Assembly (NCBI GenBank): GCA_963815195.1
Contig: CAWFGE010000009.1
Span: forward strand, 32,001 to 96,000
DNA length: 64,000 nt
Direction: 5' to 3'
Origin: an uncultured Planctomycetaceae bacterium
GTDB taxonomy: Bacteria > Planctomycetota > Planctomycetia > Planctomycetales > Planctomycetaceae
Shown: positions 50,101 to 64,000 of the stretch, in pieces
Layout of the letters: each line of letters begins with the position of its first letter
Position numbering within the stretch: position 1 is the stretch's first letter
The notes under the pieces: model-generated
Databases searched by the model: none
What the model was told of the DNA's origin: nothing
Seen by the model: the letters and a program-made list of their open reading frames with translations, nothing else
Translations under genes and position numbers: made by a program

Positions 50101-53100
50101 CTTCCAACGTAAACGTGATCGATTGCCAACTTCCGGCGAGTTCGGTGTGTGTGCGGGGATCCCATTCCACCGCCCGCGCAGAGATTGTATGCGCACCGAG
50201 CGAGAGGGCGTCCGGCGAAAACAGGAACTCGCCCGCAGCGTCGGGAAAGGCCCATTCGTCGGCCGCCTGGTCGCCGTCCAGATCGACTTCGACCGTGGTC
50301 CAGGCGAAATCGGTGTCGTTGGTCACGCGGCCGAACAGCGTCGGGTTGGCGGTGATCCCGTCCGCGGGATCGCTGCCGGTGTCGGCCCGCAGTTCCAGCG
50401 TATCAATTTCGGGGGGCTGATTGGTCACCGCTTCCAGGGTAAAGCTGAAAGGCGTCCACGTGCCGTAGGAAATCGTGCGGGTGGCCAGATCGTATTCGCG
50501 GGTGCGGGCGGAGATCGTCACCGATCCCAGCGCCAGTCCCGCGGCATAATACACGAAACCGCCCGCGGCGTCGCTGTGGACATCGTCATCGGCCACGCCG
50601 TCACCATCGAGGTCGAGCTCAACAATGATGTAGTCGCTGGTCCCCTCACCGGAGAGCGTGCCGGTGATCCGCCGGTCCGAGGTAACGAGATCGGTGTCGG
50701 ACGTGCCGGTGTCGTTTACCAGGGCGAGATCCACTACGTCCAAGTTGTCGTGGAGCGGGGCTTCCTTGGTGAAGCTGAAACTCGTCCAATCGCCGGCCAC
50801 CTGCGTGCCCTGCTGGACATCGTCAACCACGGCCCGGGCCTGAATGGTCACCGCGCCCGGCGATAGCGCGGGGACGTAATATATGAAACTCCCGTCGTAG
50901 GCGGTTTGGGTTTGGCCGTCTGCCACGCCGTCCCCGTCGCGGTCGAACTGCACGGTCACATAGGCGATAGTCTCCCCTTCAAGCTGGCCCGTGAGCGTGG
51001 GATCGGTCGTGATGCCGTCGTCGGTGATGTCTCCCGTATCATTCAAGAGGCCGAGGGAGGAAACCGTGGGGGCCGACACGCCCTCATACGTGAACGCGAT
51101 ACTGAACCAGTCGCCGAGAATGTCTGCGCCCAGTTCGGCATCGTAGCGGGCCGCCCGCGCCTGGACCGTCACATTGCCGGACGCCAGACCTTGGAGGCGA
51201 TATTGGAAACTCCCGTCGCCGGCCGTCCAGGTTGTGCCGTCCACGGCGCCATCCCCATTTTGGTCAAAGTCGATGCGGATCGGCGTTCCCGGCAATGCGT
51301 CCGTCTGCCCGACCAATGTCGTCATCCGTCGTAATCCCGTCGCTGTCCGAATCGCCGGTGTCGGTTTCCAATCCCAATGCAGTCACCTGCGTCGCCGGAT
51401 TGGGCACCAGTTCAAACGTGAACGATTCCCAAGGCCCTCTCAGGTAAGCCTGGTAGGACGTGCTCCATTCCAAAGCCCGCACATAAATGTTCTGGCTGCC
51501 GTAGGCCAAGCCGTGTGGCGTCGCGGTGAAGACGTTTTCGGCGGAATCGAGGGCCGTCCTGGTTCGGGCCGTGAGATCGACGGTGCCGTCGCCGTCCAGG
51601 TCCAATTCCACGGGGCGGTAGGCTTGGCTCGCTGTGCCTTGGACCTGTCCAGTCAGCGTCGGATCCCAGGTGACCTGTCCGCCTTGCGTATCGTTGACCA
51701 GGGCCAGACTGACGATCGTGTCGGTCGAGGGCGGCAGTGCGACGACCGTCAAGTCATACGCCACCCACGGTCCGGTGTCCGTCACCGCCCCGTCCCCATC
51801 CAAGCGGACCAGGCGATAATTCAGCACCAAGTCTCCCAGATAATCCGCCAGTGCGGGATCGCTGTCCCGCGGATCATATTGAAAACTTTCTCCCCCGGCA
51901 GTCGCGATGTCGACTTGGCCGTCCTCGACGCCGTCCCCGTTATGATCGAACTCCACCCGGCCGCTGCCGGTGGCCGTCGTGCCGTTCACGGTGCCCACCA
52001 CGGTGGGATGCACGCTGTCGCGGTCGTAGTCCGAATCGCCCGTATCCAGCCATAACCCGAAATCATCCACCGTCAGCCCATCCACGGCGGGGGGCGATTC
52101 CAAGGTATAGTCAAAGTCTTGCCAGCCGCCCGTCGATTGGATATTTCCCGCAGCGTCGCGTTTTACCAGCCGATATTGAAGCGACAGGCTGCCCGTGAAG
52201 CCGTTCAACGCGGGATCGAAGCGCAGGGGGTTATACACGAACGATTGTCCGCTCGCGCCAAAGGACAACACGCCTTCCGCCGTCCCGTCCCCATCGTGAT
52301 CCCATTCGAGATTGACGGTGCCGACCCCGAAACCGCCATCCACCGTGCCGGTGATCCGCGGATCCCAGGTCACCAGATCGCTTGAGGAATTGCCGGTGTC
52401 TTGGACCAATTGCAAATTATCGACGGAAAGCGGGGGAAGGCCGATTTCCAGCGTCACCGTAGCCACGTCGCTCATCGCTATGCCGTCATCAGCCCGGTAG
52501 GTAAAGGAGTCCACGCCCGTGTAACCCGATTCGGGATCGAACGTGAAAGAGCCGTCGCTGAGCAAGACCAACGTGCCGTGACTCGGCCCCTGGGCGACGG
52601 CGGCGGTCAGGGTATCGTTGTCGGCATCCGTATCATTCGCCAATAATCCCGTGGCTGTCGGCACGACCAACTGGGTGTCTAAACCGACCACGTAAAGATC
52701 GTCGTTCGCCACCGGCGCCGCATTCGAGGCCGTGATGGTCAATGTGACGGTGGCCGTGTTGCTCGTGTTTTGGCCATCATACGCCCTGTAGGTAAAGCTG
52801 TCCTGGCCCGTATAGCCGCTGTTTGGGGTATACACGAAAGAGCCGTCGTCCGAGAGGTTCAGTATTCCATACTGCGGCCCATTCTCGACCGTGGCGGTCA
52901 GCGGATCGTTTTCGGGATCGGTATCGTTGACCAACAGACCTTGGGCGGCATTGATCGTCAGTTGGGCGTTTTCCGCGACCTCGTAAGAATCGTCAACCGC
53001 CGTGGGGGCGCCGCTACTGCCGGCGGACGTCACGCTGATCGTGACCGTCGCCGTGCCGACCAACGCGCCGGGATCCACGGCCTCGACCGTCAGCGTGTAT

Positions 53101-54362
53101 TCCGATTGGGTGGCTGCATCGAGCGTGCCGTCCACCGTGATGTCCCCGGTGCTGCTGTCGATTGCAAAGGGCGCACTGCTAGAGGCGGCCTCGAATTGAT
53201 AGGTAATGGAATCGCCGTCCGCATCGCTGGCCCACACGCCCAATACCAAGGTGCCGACCGATGCATCGTCCTGAATCGACCCCGAATAGTTGGAGGAATC
53301 GAACGCCGGTGCAACGTTCCCGGTCCCTGTCACGTCGATCGTCACCGTGGCGCTGTTCCCATCGTCGAGTCCATCGTTGAGATGATAGGAAAACGAGTCA
53401 GATCCCACATATCCTGCGTCTGGCTGATAGACGAAAGAGCCGTCTTGCTGAAGGACGACGTGACCGTTTTGTCCGTCCGCATCCAGATGGGCCGTCAACG
53501 CGTCCCCCTCTGCATCGTAATCATTGGCCAGCACGCCCTCAATAACATTCACGGTCAACGACTGGTCCTGACTGATTGTGTAGTTGTCGTCGTAGGCTTC
53601 CGGCGGCGTATTCGTGCTCGTTTCCAGGACTTCAATCTCGACGTAGGCGATATCGCTGTTCTGAGTCCCGTCAGAGACATAGTAATAGAATCCATCATAT
53701 CCGCTGTAGTTTGGATCGGGCGTGTAGGAAAACGACCCGTCTCCCAGCAGATCCAGAAAGCCGTATGTCGCGTCCGTATCGAGGTGCACCGTGAGCGGAT
53801 CACCGTCTGGGTCGCTGTCGTTCGCCAAAACGCCGTTGCCGGTGCTCACAGTCAGTACGTCGTTTTCGTCCACGCTATAACTATCATCGGTGACTTGAGG
53901 AGGATCATTGACCGCCGTCACGCTGATGGTCACGGTGGTCGAGCCAACCAACTCGCCGGGATCCACGGCTTGGGCCGTGAGGGTGTATTCCGATTGGGTG
54001 GCGGCATCGAGTGGACCGTTGACGGTGATGTCCCCACTGCTGCTGTCGATCGCAAAGGGCGCGGTGCTGGAAGCGGTGTCGAATTGAAAGGTCACCATAT
54101 CGCCGTCACCGTCATTAGCCCACACGTTGAGAACCCAAGTGTCCTGCGCGGCATTCTCCAGAACCGTTGCGGCATAGCTGGATTGCTCGAAGACGGGAGC
54201 GACGGTCAACAGCACACGCTCCTCTAACCGCTCCACGTCCGCCAACCGGCGGGCACCTTCAGAAATTCGATTCCGGCGCACGGACCGGCAATGCGCCCGC
54301 CGAGAAAACGACCGCACGGACAACTGAAAAAACAAGCCACTCAGCCAATGGGTCAATTTCAC
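41169..54362 (-). CDS. Giant polymorphic toxin 2 (about 4,400 aa, several indels): planctomycete export motif, cadherin/Big_9/Ig repeats, Ala-rich helical stalk, Hint, AHH nuclease
   Basis: VERLEERVLLT; cadherin-like APVFEQSSY and FAIDSSSG; DTG..D..T.DP repeats; CFVAGT at 42140; VWVHN at 41732; AHHIVP...IDIN.AENG...H.G..H. Confidence 0.87.
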
Positions 54363-55564
54363 AGGTAGGCACTCCGTAGACGTGGCATTCAAGGGGGACT
54401 TGCACATCGCAGCATCCACCCGCACAGAAATCCGTTACCAAAGCGTTAGCGGATTAAAAAAACCTGACGAAACCGAGACTGATCGCGGTCGTGTAGCAGC
54501 CGAGAACAAATTGTGAATTGTATTGTAAGGCGGTCCCGAACGCCTCGGCAGCGGGAGACTCGCGAGAGTGCCTCCTTTCTAAAGGCAGGTTGATTAGACT
54601 GCGCTCACACAGGATGACGAGAAGCAACATCTAACACGAACGCGATCGTCAGAGCTACTAAAAAAGCCATCGCTGAAATATTTTTTCAAAAGTTTTTTGC
54701 CGGAATTGGTGGAAACACGTGAGCGATGTGGTAGTCATACCTATGACAATCGAATGGGAAAGATTTGTCGCACGCGAAACTGGAATGTTTGGGATGTTTG
54801 CCGGTTGCATGTGAGACCGTGAGGCGAGGTAGCTCAGTTCGACGACGGCCCGCTGTTTCGGAGGGTACCTTTGCGGTACAGAGCGTGCGGCCTTATAATA
54901 GGTGTGTCATATAATGTCACACTTTCGTCGAAAATCTCCGTTTGAACTTCCGAGCGTTGACCAACACTCTCCATTTCCTCCCGACAAAATTCGTCAGGCG
55001 GAGGTGCTTTGGGACCCTCCCCGTGGAGATCCAGAGTGGGGTCGACGCCCTCGCGAACGGACGGCCCGGTGGCCCAAATCCCACTTGGTCCGATCCCGGG
55101 ACAGCGGAGGGAAAACCGGGCGATCCGTCGAGAATCGCGGCAAGGGCTGACCACCGGCGTCCGCGTGCGGGAGACCAACGACCACGTGGAGATGGTAGTT
55201 TCGATTGGCGTCAATGGAATCTTCCGCCCTCGCTGTGGAAGGTAAATCCGATCCTCCTACAAACGCCGGCCGTGGTCGAGACGGTGGAGGATTGCCGGCC
55301 GCACGACCGAGGGCAAAACCGTCGAGAGCGCATCGCCCCCGCAGCGAAAACACGGGCCTCGAAGAGACGACAATCAGCCAGCTTCAATACCCGCTCACCG
55401 ACCGCAAGGACCTCTACCCGGTGCGGCCGGCGGTTTGTTTTCCACGGCCGTCGATCTGCTCGGCTTTTTCAGATGCTGGCGAACGGCGGCGAGTTTGATA
55501 GGCATCCTTTTCTCTCAGAAGGTGCCTTCAAGACGCTGGCCAGCAAGCAAACCCCGGACTCAAG

Positions 55565-55725
55565 CACGAGCTCGCCGAGATGCTGCCGCACGATGACGAT
55601 GCCAGCCGCCTAGCCAAGAACTGCTATCACTGGCCCGAATTCTTCCAGAAGCACGGGGTCGAGCTTTCCAAGTTGGATGCCAAAGCCACGGTCTGGGGCC
55701 ATTGCCATCACAAGGCGACGGGCGG
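55565..55725 (+). pseudogene. Internal fragment of an FAD/(Fe-S) oxidoreductase (CCG-domain region)
   Basis: ELAEMLPHDDDASRLAKNCYHWPEFF...ATVWGHCHHKATGG. Confidence 0.55.
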
Positions 55726-55748
55726 ATCCGGATACACCACCTGCCCGT

Positions 55749-55870
55749 TGACGCTGGGCCACGCCGCGGGCACGATTGCCCACAAGCATTACAGCCAAGC
55801 TCCTCAAAAGCTCCTGGATGACGCCATTGAGTGGCTGGGATATGAGTTGGGAATCACGACGGGGCTGTAG
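55749..55870 (+). pseudogene. C-terminal fragment of a tyrosine recombinase
   Basis: LGHAAGTIAHKHY (box II H...Y) then LDDAIEWL; strong hairpin at 55864-55919 at its 3' end. Confidence 0.6.
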
Positions 55871-56036
55871 CGGGCCGCTACTCGCGAAACCAGTCTAACG
55901 AGTAGCGGAGGGCTACAGCATCGCGGGCCGCAGCGGGGAGTTTCCATTGACGCCAATAGAAACAAGGGAAGCCCGGCCGAGTGTGTGGCGACCGGGCTTC
56001 CGGGGGCGGCCTGCCGAGTCCAGGCCCCGATAAGCT

Positions 56037-56442
56037 CTATTCTCCCTCTTCGAGTCGCAAGGGTGTCAACCAGCCAATCTCATCAAAAAACTGGATGGCC
56101 GATCGCATGCCGTCTCCGTGCTGAAAGGACTGGACACCCCCCGTTTCTTCCCAAAACTCAGCCGCCTGTAGCAGCTCTCGCCGGCTGCTCCCAGCGTATT
56201 CGTGGTCATATACCGATGGCTTGCCCAGCGAATTGAGAACGTCGGCCGGGACCAAAAACTCCCGCTCGCCCACTTCGTGTTCGTCGAAAGCGTCGTCGGG
56301 AACATCGAGACACAAAATCACGTTGCCCAGAACCCCGTCACTGGCGTCTAGCGGCTTATCAGCGGCCCAGACCGGGCCGCGAAACCCTTCTTTAAAAATT
56401 CGCCGGGTTTCGTCAACCGTCGTTGTTACGAAAACTCGCCAT
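56037..56442 (-). CDS. Hypothetical protein, possibly ADP-ribosyltransferase-like fold (1-nt indel near start)
   Basis: Reconstructed MRVFVTTT...IFKEGF..PVWAADKPLD...E...REFLVPA.VLN. Confidence 0.5.
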
Positions 56443-56622
56443 CACTGGCTCCGCTTTTCGGGGATGTAGGTTCCCGCCGGGACTGTCTTGGTTTCGACTT
56501 CGATTTCGTGCTCGGCTGCATGACGACTCAACCGTCTTGGTTTCGACGACGATTTCCCCGCCGCCGACGGTGCGGGGGTTTCCTTCGCGGATCGTGACTT
56601 CCTGGTGATCTTTTTCGTTCAT
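56413..56622 (-). CDS. Small hypothetical protein
   Basis: GGAGG RBS before MNEKDHQ; overlaps the next gene start. Confidence 0.35.
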   Translation of the reverse strand: MNEKDHQEVTIREGNPRTVGGGEIVVETKTVESSCSRARNRSRNQDSPGGNLHPRKAEPVMASFRNNDG

Positions 56623-56661
56623 CGCGATGACCTCCAAAAAAGTATTGACGCCAATAGAAAC

Positions 56662-56850
56662 TTACGTGAGCGGATCGTCAAAGCTGTTCACGCCGATCTC
56701 AACGAGAACCGACCGCAGGATGCGTTTCTTGGTTTCTGCCGATGTGGTGGAGTGGCTCCAGAGTTTCGTCAAGTCCGAACCCAATTCCAGCAATTGTTGC
56801 CGATTCTGATCGCTGAGAAAGATGATCTGGGACTCCGACTTGGCCATCTC
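56662..56850 (-). pseudogene. Internal fragment of a large serine recombinase
   Basis: LSDQNRQQLLELGSDLTKLW...TSAETKKRILRSVLVEI, recalled as the post-coiled-coil segment of this family. Confidence 0.6.
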
Positions 56851-56857
56851 GTCCCAG

Positions 56858-56914
56858 GTCTCAGAAAATAAGCCACTGGGCAGGCATTTCGAAAAACAAA
56901 AGTGTAACGAAATG
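56858..56914 (+). repeat. GCCACTGGGCAGGC element-end motif, solo copy
   Basis: gtctcagaaaataagccactgggcaggcatt..aaaacaaaagtgtaacgaa. Confidence 0.8.
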
Positions 56915-57421
56915 CTCCCACGATTGATACACTTGTCGGTTCGGTGAGATTGGCGGGTTCGGCACCCTTCGGTCGACCGACGGCCGAAGAATTCGAAACC
57001 GCCAAAACCAAACCAGAGAATCCCCCACATCCCGCCGAGTCCGCTGATTAGGCCGCTTCGGTGTCTCCAGGTTCATTGGCATCCCGCCCCGCTTCTATCC
57101 GCGCGTTCGCCGATTCTCTCTGCCAAAGAGTAAGAAGAAGAACCCCCGCAAAAATCCGATTCATCGGCGAAAACCCAGCGATTGGATACCCGCGCGGCGG
57201 GGGCGGGGTCTGAGAAGGACCCGCGCTTGCTTCCGCTTCCACTGAGATGGGAAAAGAGGCTCTTGCCGAAGCAGCTTTCCGAAACCCAGCCATTTGGAAG
57301 GGTAACTGCGGCAATTTTTTGTTACCCGCCCCTGTTTTGCACGAAATTGACAAGGAGGCCTTGACTCATTTCGGGCTTTTCGACTGTTATTGTCTAAGGC
57401 TTGTTTTCAAGGATTTTCGCC

Positions 57422-57761
57422 ATGACAGAGAACGCATTTGGAAGGGAATTGAGGACGAGCGGCCGATGTGACTCAGGCGGAGTTGGATGAACAACTGAAG
57501 CGAGGCTCCGGCTTCACCAGCAGCGTGGAGAATGCCCGCTACAACGCCAAGTCAAATGGATGGCTCCGAGAGGCCCTGAAAATGCTCGACGGCGAACGGG
57601 AACTGTCTGGAATGCTGGCTCTGTCGGCAGAAGATCAGCAGCGAATCGTAGGTAGATCGGATGAGCGAAGTCGTTCTCTCACTTCAGTGCCAGTTTGCAA
57701 CAGGAATCGACCGAAAGCGATTGAGGAAATCGCACAAGCGGTTGGGAAAGGAACGGTATGA
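57422..57761 (+). CDS. XRE-family HTH regulator (indel near 5' end)
   Basis: MTENAFGRELR + TQAELDEQLKRGSGFTSSVENARY. Confidence 0.55.
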
Positions 57762-58507
57762 TGCGATGAAATGCCGGCGAAGCGCTGGGCTAAATGTGAG
57801 TGACCCCTGCATCGTTGTCGCGATGAGGGGTCGGGGTTTGGGGCCTTGCGGCTCCCAATCGCGCCGGGGAGTTTAACCCTCTCCGGCGGGCAACGCAAGG
57901 CTCTTTCCAATTCTCCAAGGATGGAGATTTGTTGCCATGTATAGGCGATTCTGTTTCTTCGCGTTGGTCGCCATCGCTCTGCTTGGGCTTTGGCTTCGTC
58001 AAGGTGAAGCCGCTGCGTTGATTATTCAAATCCTCGTGCGGTTCATAACACGCTAAATTTCAAGCGGCGGAGATTCTGTGAATCTCCGCCGCGCTTCATT
58101 TGCCCAAAGCCCCGAAAAAAACGCGAGATTCTTTTTCCGGTGATTCCCAGCCGATGACGCCGTTGACACTGACAGTTTTGCAGGAAAGGATTTCCGACCA
58201 TCAGCTATTGGCGCAAGGGAACGGCCAACCGCCAACCCGTGATGACCGGGCTGGCCGTGGGAACCCCGGCGGTTTGCCGGAATCTGCGCAACACCATCTT
58301 ACGGACCAGTAACGCTTTTGGGAACGCGGTGAGCATTCCGAACGGTTGGGTCCCGATGTGCTGGCGGTTAACGTCATCTCGGAAATGAAAGCGGCGGCCG
58401 CCCAGACGCGGCCGTGGGACAGCTTGGCGGCCTGCCCTCTCACGGGTCCCCGACCATCCGGATACACCACCTGCCCGTCGGGGGGCGGCCACGGCGCCCT
58501 GAGCCCG

Positions 58508-58806
58508 GCCTTGAGGACTATGCCACTGGGCGAGCAATGGCGTTTCCGTCGCCGCAGACGAAACCTTACTTTGTCCCAGTATCTAGGCCACCGGGCAGGC
58601 TTGAACTTTTCGCTGGTCCAGCGTGCGGTCCCAGTATCGGTCCCATTATCCAAGCCACTGGGCAGGCGTTGAAACCCTCCGGTCGAGCACGGCTGCGTGT
58701 CTCTCGACGAGTTGTCCCAGCGTCTAGGCCACTGGGCAGGCATTGTGCGCCCCAGTATTCAGGCCACTGGGCAAGCATTGTACTAAAGCAAAAGTATAAC
58801 GAACCG
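58508..58806 (+). repeat. Cluster of five degenerate ~31-bp direct repeats GTCCCAGTATCTAGGCCACTGGGCAGGCATT
   Basis: Copies at 58508 (weak), 58573, 58640, 58714 and 58749. Confidence 0.85.
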
Positions 58807-58862
58807 CCGCTGCAGCGGGGGGCTACAGCGGGGAGCCCAGGTCATGTTGAATGGTCGCGCGG

Positions 58863-58927
58863 CTTTCGGGTTTGACTTTTCCAGAACCCGAAAGTACCAT
58901 AGGGCTCTTAAGGTCCATAAGGTCCAA
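58863..58927 (+). promoter_or_regulatory. Sigma70-type promoter with overlapping operator
   Basis: TTGACT(58872)-17 nt-TACCAT(58895), overlapped by the inverted repeat ctttcgggtt/aacccgaaag; tandem taaggtcca x2 downstream. Confidence 0.65.
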
Positions 58928-58955
58928 ATCCTGACAAACGAACTCGGAGGACGCC

Positions 58956-59150
58956 ATGAAAAAAAAGGGTAAAAATCAAGCAAGCCCAACTCGCCTGATT
59001 AAGTTCCACGTTTCGCCGCAGGAGCAGGACATCATACGGCTGGCCGCAGCGCTCAAGCGGACATCAATGGCCGACTTTGCTCGCCTGATTGTCCTGGACG
59101 AGGCCTTGCGCCTGACAAAAGGCGTCAGCCTGCCGGACCCGGAAAGCTAA
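58956..59150 (+). CDS. Ribbon-helix-helix protein (DUF1778-like)
   Basis: IKFHVSPQEQDIIRLAAAL...SMADFAR; GGAGG RBS. Confidence 0.75.
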   Translation: MKKKGKNQASPTRLIKFHVSPQEQDIIRLAAALKRTSMADFARLIVLDEALRLTKGVSLPDPES

Positions 59151-59205
59151 CGAGTTTCTATTGGCGTCAATGGAAACTCACCCCTCTAACCCCAAGGAGC
59201 GAAAA

Positions 59206-59789
59206 ATGCCGACGATTAATTGCGCTCTGTGCAAACACCCCGTCAAAATGCCGAAAGCAAGATACGAAAAAATGCTCGCATCCAGCAAAAAGCCGCTGTG
59301 CAGCCAGTGTCGTCGCTATGCCACGACAGCGGCCGAGGGCGACATAGAAGTATCGAACGATGGCGATACCTCTATGGTCTTGCGGGGAAAACCCGGAACG
59401 CCAATCGCCTCTCGCAAACTAAAACGCGTGGTGAACGAGACCCGCGACGAAGACGCCAACGAAGCGGATGCTTGGCGAGAACTAGTCGGGGCCCCACCAG
59501 CCGACCCCACGCAACACTGGCAAGACGCCAGCGTTTTCGACTACGAGGGGTTTGCTGACGACCTGACCTCACTGGTCCTACACTGGTGGCGTCTCGCCAT
59601 GACACCAGGCCCAAGGGCGACAGAAAAAAACCTACGACGCGCCTGTTGTATATCGCCGACGTGCTACGAGAGTTAGGCCACGATATAAGCGAGGATCTGC
59701 GAGAGCAGCAGCGGCGGGTTTCGCGAGAAGCCAACAAAAAGCACCAGGAAAAGCTAGACGTGCAGGGTCGGAAAACGGGCAAAAAGTAG
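59206..59789 (+). CDS. Hypothetical protein with N-terminal CxxC...CxxC (probable indel near 59600)
   Basis: CALC and CSQC; AAGGAG RBS. Confidence 0.55.
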
Positions 59790-59939
59790 ATTGCCCTAGA
59801 CTCTGCGGGCGAAATCCGGACTATATAGTGTATGACTCGCAGGCATTGGAGCCCGCGAAAAAAAAGAAACCCCAGCCGGTTTGCGACGGCGGCTGGGGCT
59901 TCAGGCGATTTTTCGACTCCCGTCCAGGAAGCTAATAGT

Positions 59940-61889
59940 ATGGTAACTAGCAGATCACGCAACGGCAACCCCAATCGCGGCCGCGCCGCGGAAAATGGCC
60001 ACGCCCCCCGAAACCGCCTGTCGCGGCCGGCAGCCCCGCCCGAACCCGAACCCAACCCTCGGCTGGTCGCCGCCCTTCCTGACGGGCGCCGCCGGATAAT
60101 CAGACCCGCGCGAGTCCGGGGCTCCGACGCGATCCCCGCGAACTGCCGCAGCATCACGATCCATGACCTGCCCGACTGGCCCGACGACGCCGTCGGCGAC
60201 ATGCTAGTCCTGGTGCACGACCTGGGCCGCCCGATCTACGTAGATGCCGGGCAGGAGCGCTATCCGGACGTATTCGCCGCGGCCCTCGCGGCGCTGGTGG
60301 GCCCATCAGCGGACCCCACACGATATACCCGCTCCTGTCACGCCGCCCTGATGGCCGGGGCGATCGCGCATCCCGAATCCGCCGAAGCGGCATATAACCA
60401 GATCGCGGCCCGGCTGCGGGCGTTGGGCGATTCCCGAACACACACGCAGTTAGTCGCATTTCTGCGACAGGCGGGGGGCGCGTTGTTCGCGGGCGGCGAA
60501 TCGCGCGAAATGACGCTGAAGGCGTGGGCGGAGAGCTATCTGGCCAGCCTGCCCCAGCCCACCGCCGCGGAGGAAATCGAGACCGGGGCGCCGCCGCCGC
60601 CGCTGATATATTACCAGGACGGGTATTATGCACGGCAAAATAATAGGTATCGCGAAGCCCCCAAAAAGGAGGTTAAGGCAACTGTTACCCGTCACGCGCA
60701 GTCACGGCCCGGCGGGGACAAGCTGGCCGATGGGACGATACGCAGCATCATGACCCATTTGGACGGCCTAACTGTGCTGCCCAGCCAGTCGCTGGATTTC
60801 CCGCTGTGGGTCGAGGCCTGGCCGGATCGGGTATCACGCTCGCCATATCTCGCTATGGCCAATGGCCTACTCGACCTGCAGGCACTGCTGGACGGCCGGG
60901 AGGAGCCCCTCCGGACTCACAGCTCGCGGCACTTCTCGCCGACGATCCTGCCCTACGAGTTCAACCCCCGGGCGGGCTGTCCCATATGGCGACGGACGCT
61001 GGCGAGGATCCTCCCGCGACGGGGCGATGGGGACCTCCGACGACCTATATTACAGCAGTTTTTCGGCTGGTGCTTGGCCGGCCCGTTACTTCCCGATTAC
61101 CAAAAATTTTTAGTGTTGTTTGGCGAAGCGGGATCCGGAAAGGGAACCTGTCTGCGCGTTTTGGACGCTCTGGTCGGCAAGGACAATCTGTCGCATGTGA
61201 CCCCGGCCGAGCTGGAAGAAAAATTCGGGATGGAATCGCTCTCCGGAAAACTCGTGAACTCGGCGGGCGATATTGGTGAGCACATCTCGAAAAAAGCAGA
61301 AAGCCGCCTCAAGGCGCTGACGGGCAGCGATGCCATGACCATCGCCCGAAAATGGCGCACCGACGCGATCCTACTACCCGAGAGCCGTCCCCGCCTGGCC
61401 TTCGCCGCGAACGCCATGCCGAGGTTCGAGGACCGCAGCAGCGGAACATGGCGACGGCTGATTGCGATGCCGTTTTTGAACCCGATCGCGGCCGAGGACC
61501 GTGACGTGCAGCGCGATGACGACCTGCGCGCCGAACTGCCAGGAATCTTCAATTGGGCGATTCGCGGGGCGCGACTGCTGAGCTACCAGGGGGCGTTTCC
61601 AAGCTGCGAACTCTGCCAGGCGGCGCTGGATGAGCACCGGCTACACTCGGATCCGCTCCGCCAATGGGTGGAGGCTCGCGTGATACTCGACCCCGCTGGT
61701 CGCGCGTGGGTCGATGCTGCCTATCGCGACTACCGCGACTGGTGCGCTGAGAGCGGCTATCGCGCGCTCGGAAAATCAGAATTCGGACGGCAAATCGGAA
61801 AAATCGACAACGTCGAAAGACGCTATCCCAGGGTCGGCGGATCCCGGCAATACCAGTACTGGGGACTGCGGTTGGCGGAGGGGCGATGA
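59940..61889 (+). CDS. P4-family / D5-like SF3 helicase (phage/plasmid primase C-terminal type)
   Basis: YLAMANGLLDL, LPYEFNP.A.CP.W, Walker A GEAGSGKGT, LKALTGSD, GTWRRLIAMPF, C-terminal wHTH (Y..WC.ESG). Start may be 59832. Confidence 0.9.
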   Translation: MVTSRSRNGNPNRGRAAENGHAPRNRLSRPAAPPEPEPNPRLVAALPDGRRRIIRPARVRGSDAIPANCRSITIHDLPDWPDDAVGDMLVLVHDLGRPIYVDAGQERYPDVFAAALAALVGPSADPTRYTRSCHAALMAGAIAHPESAEAAYNQIAARLRALGDSRTHTQLVAFLRQAGGALFAGGESREMTLKAWAESYLASLPQPTAAEEIETGAPPPPLIYYQDGYYARQNNRYREAPKKEVKATVTRHAQSRPGGDKLADGTIRSIMTHLDGLTVLPSQSLDFPLWVEAWPDRVSRSPYLAMANGLLDLQALLDGREEPLRTHSSRHFSPTILPYEFNPRAGCPIWRRTLARILPRRGDGDLRRPILQQFFGWCLAGPLLPDYQKFLVLFGEAGSGKGTCLRVLDALVGKDNLSHVTPAELEEKFGMESLSGKLVNSAGDIGEHISKKAESRLKALTGSDAMTIARKWRTDAILLPESRPRLAFAANAMPRFEDRSSGTWRRLIAMPFLNPIAAEDRDVQRDDDLRAELPGIFNWAIRGARLLSYQGAFPSCELCQAALDEHRLHSDPLRQWVEARVILDPAGRAWVDAAYRDYRDWCAESGYRALGKSEFGRQIGKIDNVERRYPRVGGSRQYQYWGLRLAEGR

Positions 61890-61897
61890 TCGGCGCG

Positions 61898-62290
61898 GAT
61901 CCCGCACCGATCTAGCACCAGATCTAGCACCAGATCCCGCACCAGATCCCGCACCAGACCCCAACTCTGACGCGACGATGAATCTGAAACGTGAAAAAAG
62001 GATCAAAATGATGTACAACGTTCACCTAAAATGGTGCGGGTGGTGCTAGATCGGTGCTAGATCTGGTGCTAGATCTACCTCGACCAAACGCTAGAAATAT
62101 AGGGGTGGTGCTAGTGGTGCTAGTGGATTCCCTATTAAGTTGCGTATAGGGAAATTTTTTGAGGGAAAAAAAAACGAAAAGAAAAACAATATCCAGATCC
62201 ACTAGCACCACCCGCACCACCCCTATATTTCTAGCGTTTCAGAGGGGGGGGGATCTAGCACCAGATCTAGCACCACCCGCACCACCCCCT
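61898..62290. repeat. Iteron-like repeats with a large inverted repeat: putative replication origin
   Basis: gatc(ta/cc)gcacca x5 (61898-61956), inverted copies (62032-62074), 43-bp IR 62086-62128/62197-62239 around an A-rich core, further copies at 62252-62288. Confidence 0.8.
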
Positions 62291-62337
62291 CACTCCATCA
62301 GCTTTCATCAACAATTTTCAACACTCAGAGGCCATAA

Positions 62338-63491
62338 ATGAAACCTTTAAATCCGCAGCTATTTAAGCTTCTTCAACTGCATTTTCAGACTGTTTTGGTC
62401 TCCAACGACGGCTGCGGCTCTGACCTGATCCGCAGACCCATTCGGGGCAGACGGCAAGGCCCGGTGGAGCGCCGAGATCGCCAATCCCAGTTCCGGTGAG
62501 CAGTACCGGGTCAACTGCCCATTTTGCAACGACGTGACGCAGCGGCTCTACATTCACCACCGTTACGGGTCGCGTGACGAGAAAACGGGCAGTGATTTTC
62601 GGGGGCTCATTTATTGCTTCAACGAAGAATGCCACGAAGAGGTAGCCAACCGCGACCAGCTACATGAGATGATTTTTTCGCGGGCTTCGTGGCGGGGGGC
62701 TCCCAGCGCTACCCAGATTCAGCCGGGCCGTCCTGAGGGGCCCGCGTCCCCGCCGCCAGAAATAAAGTATCCAGGTGCCACAATCCGCCTGGACAAGCTC
62801 GCGAAAACCCACCCCGATCATCCCGCGATTCTGTATCTGGAGGGGCGTGGGTTCGACCCCGGGATGTTGGGCCGGTTTTGGGATGTGCGCTACTGCCCCA
62901 CGAAATACTCAAACCGGATCATCATACCGATGCATAAGCAAAAAGCGGGCAAAAAAACGCTGGTGGGATGGCAGGCGAGATACATCGGCGATCCCCCGCC
63001 GAACGTGCCAAAATATCTCACCTGCCCGGGAATGCGCCGCAACCGGGAAGCCTACAATTTCGGCCCGGCTGTCCGTCGCCAGACCATTGCCATTGTCGAG
63101 GGCCCTACCGATGTGTGGCGTTTTGGGCCCCAAGCGATGGGACTTTGGGGCAAGACGATGAGCGAGTTTTTGCGGCAACGGCTTGTTAAAACGCTCCTAC
63201 GCCATAGCGACCAGACCGTCGTAGTGCTATTTGACCCCAATCAAAATCCAAAAGAAAAAGACAAAGGGAAGCTGCATCATATCGAGCGGCTAGTGTTCGA
63301 TCTTTCCGCCGAGTTGCAACGCGCCGAGGCTTCGCCGGCAAAGAGTTTTTGGAGTTCACCTGCCGGAGGAGCTAGATCCCGGCTCGATGGAGCGGGAGTC
63401 ACTTTGGCGAGCGGTCCAGCGAGAGGCCGACATTTTGGGGCTTGACGTTAGTTTCGGCAAAGCGTCGCTACGAAAAAAGAAAAAGGTATAG
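62338..63491 (+). CDS. Zn-finger + Toprim (DnaG-like) primase, split by indels
   Basis: MKPLNPQLF..., GEQYRVNCPFCND...CFNEEC, RIIIP, GWQAR, PKY, IVEGPTD, VLFD, and DPG in the final frame ending at TAG 63489-63491. Confidence 0.8.
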
Positions 63492-63561
63492 TTCTCATTG
63501 GCGTCAATGGAAACTCGGCCGCATCGCGCGGCCAGGACGATGTTTACTTTTTAGGAGAAGC

Positions 63562-63840
63562 ATGGACATGCGAAACGAAATCCAACCGACCTCAGTCCCG
63601 TTTCCGCAAGGCTGGGACTCAGGCACCCCCCAAGAACGCCGCAGACAGATGCTCGCGGATGGCCGGCGCGAACTGTTGACGTTGCTGAGTCATGGCCCAT
63701 TGCCTAGGCATCGGCTAGAGGCCAGTACTTCAATGACTGCCAATCGTCTCGATAGGGTTCTGAGGCGGCTGATTGTCGAAGGCAGCATCGAACTGGCCAC
63801 CAACGACGAAGGCGTCGAAATCTGTCGCCTCGTGGAATAG
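63562..63840 (+). CDS. Small winged-HTH-like protein bracketed by two 28-bp palindromes
   Basis: AGGAG RBS; LLTLLSHGP...L.......RLDRVLRRL..EG.I. Confidence 0.55.
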   Translation: MDMRNEIQPTSVPFPQGWDSGTPQERRRQMLADGRRELLTLLSHGPLPRHRLEASTSMTANRLDRVLRRLIVEGSIELATNDEGVEICRLVE

Positions 63841-64000
63841 TTTCCATTGGCGTCAATGGAAACTCCGTTGGCCTATGCTCCACAGTCTGCTCTGCCTTTC
63901 TCGAACTGACGCATTCGATCGGATAGCGAGGCGGGCCGGGATCATCCGGCCCATGCCTCCAGGCCTTTCGGCATACATTCGCCGTCCGCGCCTTGGAGAC

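Follow-up and report, generated by a model that had tools for sequence, protein, structure and literature searches.

A 28-bp palindrome at gene-module edges in planctomycete integrative elements is a candidate recombination site

We examined a 64,000-nucleotide stretch (the window) of an uncultured Planctomycetaceae bacterium (GenBank assembly GCA_963815195.1, contig CAWFGE010000009.1, positions 32,001 to 96,000), whose genome (G000) comprises 8.87 Mb in 25 contigs. The part of the window considered here carries genes for a D5-family helicase and a DNA primase with an origin-like repeat cluster between them, several smaller genes, and a 28-bp palindromic repeat with the core GGCGTC (Table 1). 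We put at about one in two the probability that this repeat is a recombination site, distinct from both dif and integron attC, that delimits modules of planctomycete integrative elements.

The repeat and its island setting

Five places in the window hold full copies of the repeat; a pattern scan returned seven matches there, two of the places matching on both strands, and none in 100 shuffles. An earlier sequence-only reading had listed six palindromes. The repeat is real and its copies lie where that reading placed them, with the qualification that the sixth (56636-56663) is a half site, which keeps the left arm, the core and AAT, its right arm having decayed to AATACTTTTTT. The core is identical in all six window copies, as had been claimed, and in 12 of the 13 copies genome-wide. 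The proposed 11-6-11 geometry suits the 28 bp, but the first and last core bases are complementary, giving a palindrome of 12 bp per arm with one central mismatch pair, so that 12-4-12 and 13-2-13 describe the 28-mer as well. Also borne out were stop codons at four sites (a ribbon-helix-helix (RHH) gene, TAA at 59148-59150; the primase tail, TAG at 63489-63491; a winged-helix (wHTH) gene, TAG at 63838-63840; and a minus-strand serine-recombinase fragment), the orientation of the core along the adjacent gene, and the direct pairs that bracket the wHTH gene, the helicase-origin-primase block and a module of two open reading frames (ORFs).

The series seen in the window extends past its edge, with two further copies at window-equivalent positions 64622 and 67239, and onto three other contigs. 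By matrix scan the genome contains 12 full copies, the half site and a single weak match that looks coding (C1:82558). The core with its inner arms occurs at 13 places, all in four island loci: eight in the window island (including the two beyond the edge), two on contig C10, one on C11 and two on C17. A genome-wide scan had been suggested as a check for scatter of the kind seen in repetitive extragenic palindromic (REP) elements; the 13 copies are confined to these islands. Most of them share no flanking sequence, though exactly 28 bp are kept, and seven of nine neighbouring pairs are direct. The C11 copy (C11:19474-19517) has 19-bp arms, with eight extra complementary bases on each side.

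The sites at C10:31406 and C11:19482 lie ~200 bp behind the 3' ends of tRNA-Val genes. On C17, a 59-bp copy of the 3' part of tRNA-Val stands ~107 bp before an intact 502-aa tyrosine integrase gene, which is followed by a helix-turn-helix gene and then by a DnaB-like helicase gene whose stop overlaps a site. The window integrase is a ~38-codon remnant of the same family as the C17 enzyme and nearly identical to a database protein, P0003, while the window primase is 72% identical to a full-length relative, P0122; both relatives are on record from a 59,024-base contig. Because of this tRNA-Val and integrase setting, the near-identity of the integrase tail to P0003 and the primase relative P0122, we read the window as a mosaic integrative element in decay, which carries a cluster of origin-like repeats along with its D5 helicase and primase. 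The primase tail is frameshifted, since P0122 is full-length, and some of the frameshifts in the window may be assembly errors, as contigs of sequencing run X1 differ by single-base indels.

Table 1. Sites, genes and other features of the window island (positions in the window)
Feature	Positions	Strand	Basis
Site 1, full copy, 4 differences from site 4	55196..55223	+	pattern/matrix scan
C-terminal remnant of tRNA-targeting tyrosine integrase; one difference from intact P0003 over the last 38 residues	55754..55870	+	
GC-rich inverted repeat, terminator-like, between integrase stop and site 2	55864..55919	not assigned	
Site 2, between converging 3' ends of integrase remnant and ORF 56037	55938..55965	-	
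Small ORF without a recognised family, possibly not a true gene	56037..56321	-	
Small ORF with ribosome-binding site, directly after half site; no family found	56413..56628	-	
Site 3, half site (decayed right arm)	56636..56663	-	
Serine-recombinase internal fragment, 83% identical to a three-copy gene; homology stops 9 bp before site 3; in-frame stop overlaps site 3	56662..56846	-	
Small ORF resembling XRE by eye only; without match in Pfam or PHROG	57468..57761	+	
RHH-like gene, with NikA-like and TacA1 matches that are weak and under the cut-off; 1 bp separates its stop from site 4	58956..59150	+	
Site 4, consensus-type copy	59152..59179	+	
D5-family helicase (primase-helicase type)	59832..61889	+	
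Origin-like cluster of 11-12-bp direct and inverted repeats	61898..62290	not assigned	
DNA primase in three frames; compared with P0122 it has two frameshifts, possibly errors of assembly; its stop forms the first codon of site 5	62338..63491	+	
Site 5; ~25-bp right flank resembles that of the C17:376170 site, upstream genes unrelated	63489..63516	+	
wHTH gene in 349-bp site-RBS (ribosome-binding site)-ORF-site module; no close relative found	63562..63840	+	
Site 6	63838..63865	+	
Internal fragment, 79% identical to one of a trio of C14 tyrosine recombinase genes; homology begins inside site 6 right arm and continues to 64058	63858..64000	+	

Other features of the islands were recorded alongside. 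The origin-like repeats between the helicase and primase genes occur in both orientations and include a 43-bp inverted repeat. The site-bounded blocks 59152/63489 in the window and C10:27068/31406 measure 4337 and 4338 bp with unrelated contents, probably by chance. Stacks of short repeats resembling insertion sequence (IS) ends recur next to sites in the C9 and C17 islands (window 56856-56889, 58571-58780, 55724-55752 and 58454-58482; L001 12655-12770; L003 12225-12500), and we assigned them to IS families presumptively. Duplications of tRNA-Val suggest that the contig pairs C17 end/C11 start and C10 start/C5 start bound the same or tandem islands. The two-site cargo on C10 (L004:8419-10598), possibly a defence module, encodes an Mrr-like restriction endonuclease, a histidine-kinase ATPase and a receiver domain. 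Database protein P0028 looks mosaic, its start matching P0003 and the remainder resembling P0002, which suggests exchange among coexisting related elements. On the minus strand at 15000-54425 lie repeat protein genes of very large size that are broken by frameshifts and have several alternative modules at the C-terminus; Pfam finds cadherin/Ig domains at 51267-54425, and their tails look by eye intein-like and polymorphic toxin-like.

Relatives, arms and core

The site is rare, with three genomes found. At one mismatch the 28-mer occurs in none of 40 relatives; exact or near-exact searches found it in no GTDB contig, in no viral sequence and, among 401 genomes of the phylum, in G000 only. A metagenome search gave two matches, both within apparent coding sequence, and a plasmid search gave no full-length match. 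A relaxed pattern matched 54 of 397 family genomes, mostly once. The search returned 29 loci of relatives, of which five truncated by contig ends were skipped, and because 21 of the 24 single matches examined lie inside frames of at least 150 aa, these singles are treated as chance. Searches with the arms gave three single matches among 300 genomes of the class and 36 among viruses, in AT-rich contigs.

Two of the 397 family relatives, G395 and G072, which represent two further genera, carry direct pairs with similar arms and different cores, all four copies lying outside long frames. The G395 pair (C198; cores GTCGAC and GGCGAC) surrounds 13 kb of DUF1501/DUF1553/FecR/ECF cargo. The G072 pair, on a contig (C667) chosen for its primase homologue, has the core TACATA twice around a truncated primase gene; the first copy stands directly 5' of this fragment, which is without its first 119 residues. 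Among 14 stretches around primase homologues (10 genomes), only that of G072 has a multi-copy site, and locus searches with the integrase and helicase as queries yielded nothing.

Within G000 the arms of the 12 full copies differ at 26 of 264 positions and the cores at 1 of 72 (Fisher p=0.010; p=0.08 without the outermost base). Between genomes the core changes and the arms persist, and inner bases are invariant across the three genera. A matrix trained on the arms of the 17 sites found 12 matches of at least 24 bits with a 6-bp spacer and at most one at any other spacer of 3-10. Both arms tolerate the same T-to-A change at position 4, and we therefore predict that they are bound by a single protein. 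The low variation of the core within a genome fits what would be expected of a strand-exchange region whose centre is kept by the need for identity between partners.

Module edges give further evidence. At 5 of the 13 copies an in-frame stop of a recognisable gene falls at the left end, compared with 3.9% of random island positions (p=8e-5). The window primase ends KV-stop at its site, and the 72%-identical relative ends VKQ. The 349-bp wHTH unit runs site, ribosome-binding site, ORF, site. Relatives of its protein were found neither on the contig of P0122 nor, as close ones, among 5.8 billion or 1.8 billion proteins. P0164 (2,679 aa) matches this small protein in 16 separate stretches.

Our favoured mechanism is that one tyrosine recombinase joins, excises and reorders island gene modules at the double-stranded 28-bp site. 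The same protein would bind both arms and exchange strands across the central 6 bp, which would have to match between partners. Between two direct sites a module, such as the 349-bp wHTH module or the 4.3-kb helicase-origin-primase module, would be released as a circle; between inverted sites it would be flipped. The enzyme, which is not intact in the window, would be supplied in trans from an island relative. A broader and tentative version, which we consider rather doubtful, is that islands of Planctomycetaceae harbour a cassette system not described before, which has a symmetric 28-bp site of its own and a recombinase of unrecognised type. Parallel to integrons and pdif modules but independent of IntI and XerCD, it would shuffle whole replication and regulatory modules between integrative elements and capture pieces of other genes at site edges.

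Several results weigh against a crossover site. When real sites were grafted onto random flanks the excess of stop codons fell to p=0.056, the letters of the site themselves supplying stops. A site stands within 10 bp of only 2 of the island's 26 homology-block ends (p=0.17), so that most island rearrangement occurred elsewhere; the coincidence of synteny breakpoints with sites, an expectation of the sequence-only reading, is thus suggestive and not significant. That reading had also proposed a look for circular or excised junctions; neither excised nor inverted junctions at a site were seen in the assembled, low-depth contigs of three runs, and run X1 has its joints either at IS-like repeats or at a distance from sites. 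The inner arms of the window site read ATT-N6-AAT, whereas the dif and pdif sites seen here read TAA-N6-TTA. Each G395 copy lies within a 130-bp, 95%-identical duplication with both flanks shared and one core base different, which a simple attB x attP crossover would not produce. A multi-copy site of this type is missing from all 40 stretches that surround integrase homologues. No enzyme was found that follows the site, nor a recombinase lineage specific to the three site-bearing genomes; their common tyrosine recombinases are XerC, XerD and one integrase lineage, of which distant matches also occur in site-free genomes, and the island integrase family itself has only distant matches in G072 and G395 (best E 3e-8 and 3e-28). 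These two assemblies are fragmented (87% and 92% complete), and a gene missing there proves little.

The best-surviving alternative, which we nevertheless think unlikely, is that the palindrome works as a folded single strand, either as an RNA hairpin behind stop codons, with a role in processing, stabilisation or protein binding, or as an attC- or REP-like DNA hairpin. Most copies point the same way as the neighbouring gene, the C11 copy has its extended arms, and folding of the GGCGTC strand gives z of -4.3 for site 4 and -4.9 for site 6, but sites 1, 3 and 5 fold no better than shuffles. Pairing within the stem is similarly divided: arms belonging to one site pair a little better than they do after shuffling (113 vs 109.7 of 132, p=0.026), and mismatches on the GGCGTC strand include transition types (G.T 8, A.C 1, six of the eight being one shared variant), yet 10 of 19 arm mismatches are T.T, T.C, G.G or C.C and unable to pair. 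The pairing test was kept within G000, since a pair count over all 17 sites, which beat shuffles, is inflated by relatedness. A hairpin also gives no obvious reason for a loop that stays constant while its stem drifts, a GTAG/CGTC tag stands near the foot in 2 of 13 copies, and no site has an Rfam match or a U-tract.

The arm and core pattern bears also on the idea of an operator in 12-4-12 layout for an island-encoded repressor of RHH, wHTH or XRE-like type, to which we give a small chance. A homodimer would fit the symmetric arms, genes for three small putative DNA-binding proteins adjoin sites, and sites 3, 4 and 5 are located 7-45 bp before ribosome-binding sites and start codons. Within the genome, however, the centre is steadier than the arms, the opposite of an uncontacted spacer. 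Several copies lie at converging 3' ends or before internal fragments, and two in the window cannot precede start codons. Site 2 stands between converging 3' ends and site 6 ahead of an internal gene fragment, where an operator would have little to regulate. A scan for sigma-70-type promoters found none overlapping any site, the RHH homologue in genome G128 is not followed by a site, and the search for relatives of the wHTH protein found none, though G072 and G395 have sites.

A serine recombinase cutting a 13-2-13 site at its central CG is improbable. The CG is identical in all 15 copies of G000 and G395 while neighbouring bases vary, resolvase domains give 23 matches in the genome, and a fragment of one of these genes stops at site 3. 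Both G072 copies, however, have CA at the centre, the four loci contain none of the 23 domains, and accessory subsites were not observed. Inert remnants that duplication and deletion had spread would suit decaying islands full of fragments whose ends lie mostly away from sites, and the duplicated G395 pair, but are very improbable given that most G000 copies lack common flanks yet keep exactly 28 bp with inner bases invariant across three genera.

Two other identities were rejected. A CRISPR-type (clustered regularly interspaced short palindromic repeats) or solitary repeat does not apply, as the genome has no array of the 28-mer. A sequencing linker artefact is contradicted by the variation among copies and by a run X1 contig that bridges site 2 (21 differences in 680 bases), although X1 may be the source sample and not independent support.

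Known systems and candidate enzymes

Integron attC sites have R and L boxes, span at least 55 bp and carry extrahelical bases. The window modules resemble integron cassettes, including integrase-less attC clusters, in having a promoterless ORF between co-oriented sites and array polarity; a stop in or beside the site may be a further likeness (5 of 13 copies, p=0.056 against grafted sites). Here, though, the site is an ungapped 28-bp palindrome with neither R/L boxes nor extrahelical bases, no integron integrase stands beside the sites, and the modules include a 4.3-kb replication block.

In the XerS/difSL and XerH/difH systems one recombinase acts on a near-symmetric site, which occurs singly at the chromosomal terminus beside the recombinase gene. 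The single recombinase proposed here on a near-symmetric site would be similar, but here xerC, xerD and a canonical dif candidate are found elsewhere in the genome. Both systems are named as single-recombinase Xer systems in the accessible part of PMC3025954.

Closer in layout are the pdif modules of Acinetobacter, in which, according to the available portion of PMC13141974, multiple 28-bp 11-6-11 sites for XerC/XerD bracket small accessory modules, recombination requires 6-bp spacers that are identical or nearly so, with excision between direct pairs and inversion between inverted ones. The window repeat has the same length and layout around modules and likewise a common 6-bp spacer (12 of 13 cores identical). 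From what that portion describes, pdif arms are two sequences that match the host dif and neighbouring sites alternate in orientation, whereas here both arms are the same, agree with the host dif candidate at 1/11 and 2/11 bases, and direct neighbours prevail. REP elements of the GTAG/CGTC families, as far as the accessible text of PMC3733652 goes, share the 20-40-bp extragenic palindrome and G.T pairs in the stem; they differ in their high copy number, against 13 island-confined copies here, and in the terminal tag, near the foot in only two of these. No RAYT (REP-associated tyrosine transposase) was recognised among the neighbouring ORFs scanned, although no search was aimed at that family. 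No description of this 28-bp site, or of a planctomycete dif, was found in openly accessible literature. On the favoured reading the 28-bp site would work like pdif modules or integron cassettes, while lacking defining features of both and of REPs.

The sequence-only reading had inferred a cassette-shuffling system of this element, run by its integrase. The 28-bp geometry, the pattern of arms and core, the restriction to islands, the co-orientation with genes and the stops at the left arm all speak for such a system; the element's own integrase does not, and the breakpoints fall short of significance. Of the window integrase only ~38 codons remain, members of its family use tRNA attachment sites, and the 40 stretches around its homologues lack a multi-copy site of this type; the system is therefore not attributed to this integrase. 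That family duplicates tRNA sequence and adjoins tRNA genes in several relatives. The repeat was also rejected as the att core of the island tRNA integrase, since the duplicated sequence is the 3' part of tRNA-Val, and a Replic_Relax relaxase was dismissed as the actor: the C17 ORF has no Pfam match, and seven genomes gave none above cut-off.

Tyrosine recombinases usually have HxLR where the island integrases show KSLKK. The tRNA-targeting family (286 matches; alignment A1, P0001-P0118; L003:4513-6021) has an apparently non-canonical catalytic set, in which TQKD aligns with the XerD arginine box and H462 and Y472 are invariant. Two other 11-6-11 sites were seen in the genome. At C20:21086-21113 a perfect palindrome of the TAA-N6-TTA type adjoins a tyrosine recombinase gene (C20:20051-20632) and is likely that enzyme's own site. 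An ATAA-N6-TTAT type has eight copies (C7:42417, C7:78013, C8:31364, C12:3147, C15:138391, C16:85537, C18:31950 and C23:1297), each within ~1 kb of a resolvase-domain gene.

A dif candidate for the family

The host xerC and xerD genes lie on C12 and converge. When five near-complete relatives were searched for the canonical inner pattern, one shared 16-mer of dif type emerged; G000 and each of five further relatives have it in single copy, and it is present in all ten relatives tested (L186-L195). Over 11 genomes the 28-mer consists of an invariant arm, TTATCGGACGT, and a variable arm ending ACATAA; in G000 it reads ACCGAACATAA CGGACA TTATCGGACGT, in single copy at C15:616872-616899. Octamers of the FtsK-orienting polar sequence (KOPS) switch polarity at C15:616872, from 24:0 in the preceding 100 kb to 1:17 in the following 40 kb, their genome-wide density being ~9 per 100 kb. 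GC skew is too weak to place the G000 terminus.

The window repeat has the 28-bp, 11-6-11 layout of a dif, but it is not a single copy at a KOPS convergence, there being no KOPS bias at its island, and it is not conserved (0 of 40 relatives). We therefore reject it as the host dif or as an Xer-exploiting element; the host candidate lies elsewhere and is another sequence, so the earlier view that the repeat is unlike canonical XerCD dif stands. The conserved dif candidate at a sharp KOPS switch is firmer than the crossover-site reading.

Looking forward, a crossover site, if real, would add a third type beside attC and pdif for module shuffling in mobile elements, the replication module included, and would offer a compact symmetric target with a changeable core once the enzyme is in hand; its rarity limits the reach of the finding. 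Planctomycete bacteria keep FtsK and are not known to have FtsZ. For the one planctomycete tested by Kono et al., dif prediction failed, according to the accessible part of that work (PMC3025954). The dif candidate makes chromosome dimer resolution testable in planctomycete bacteria.

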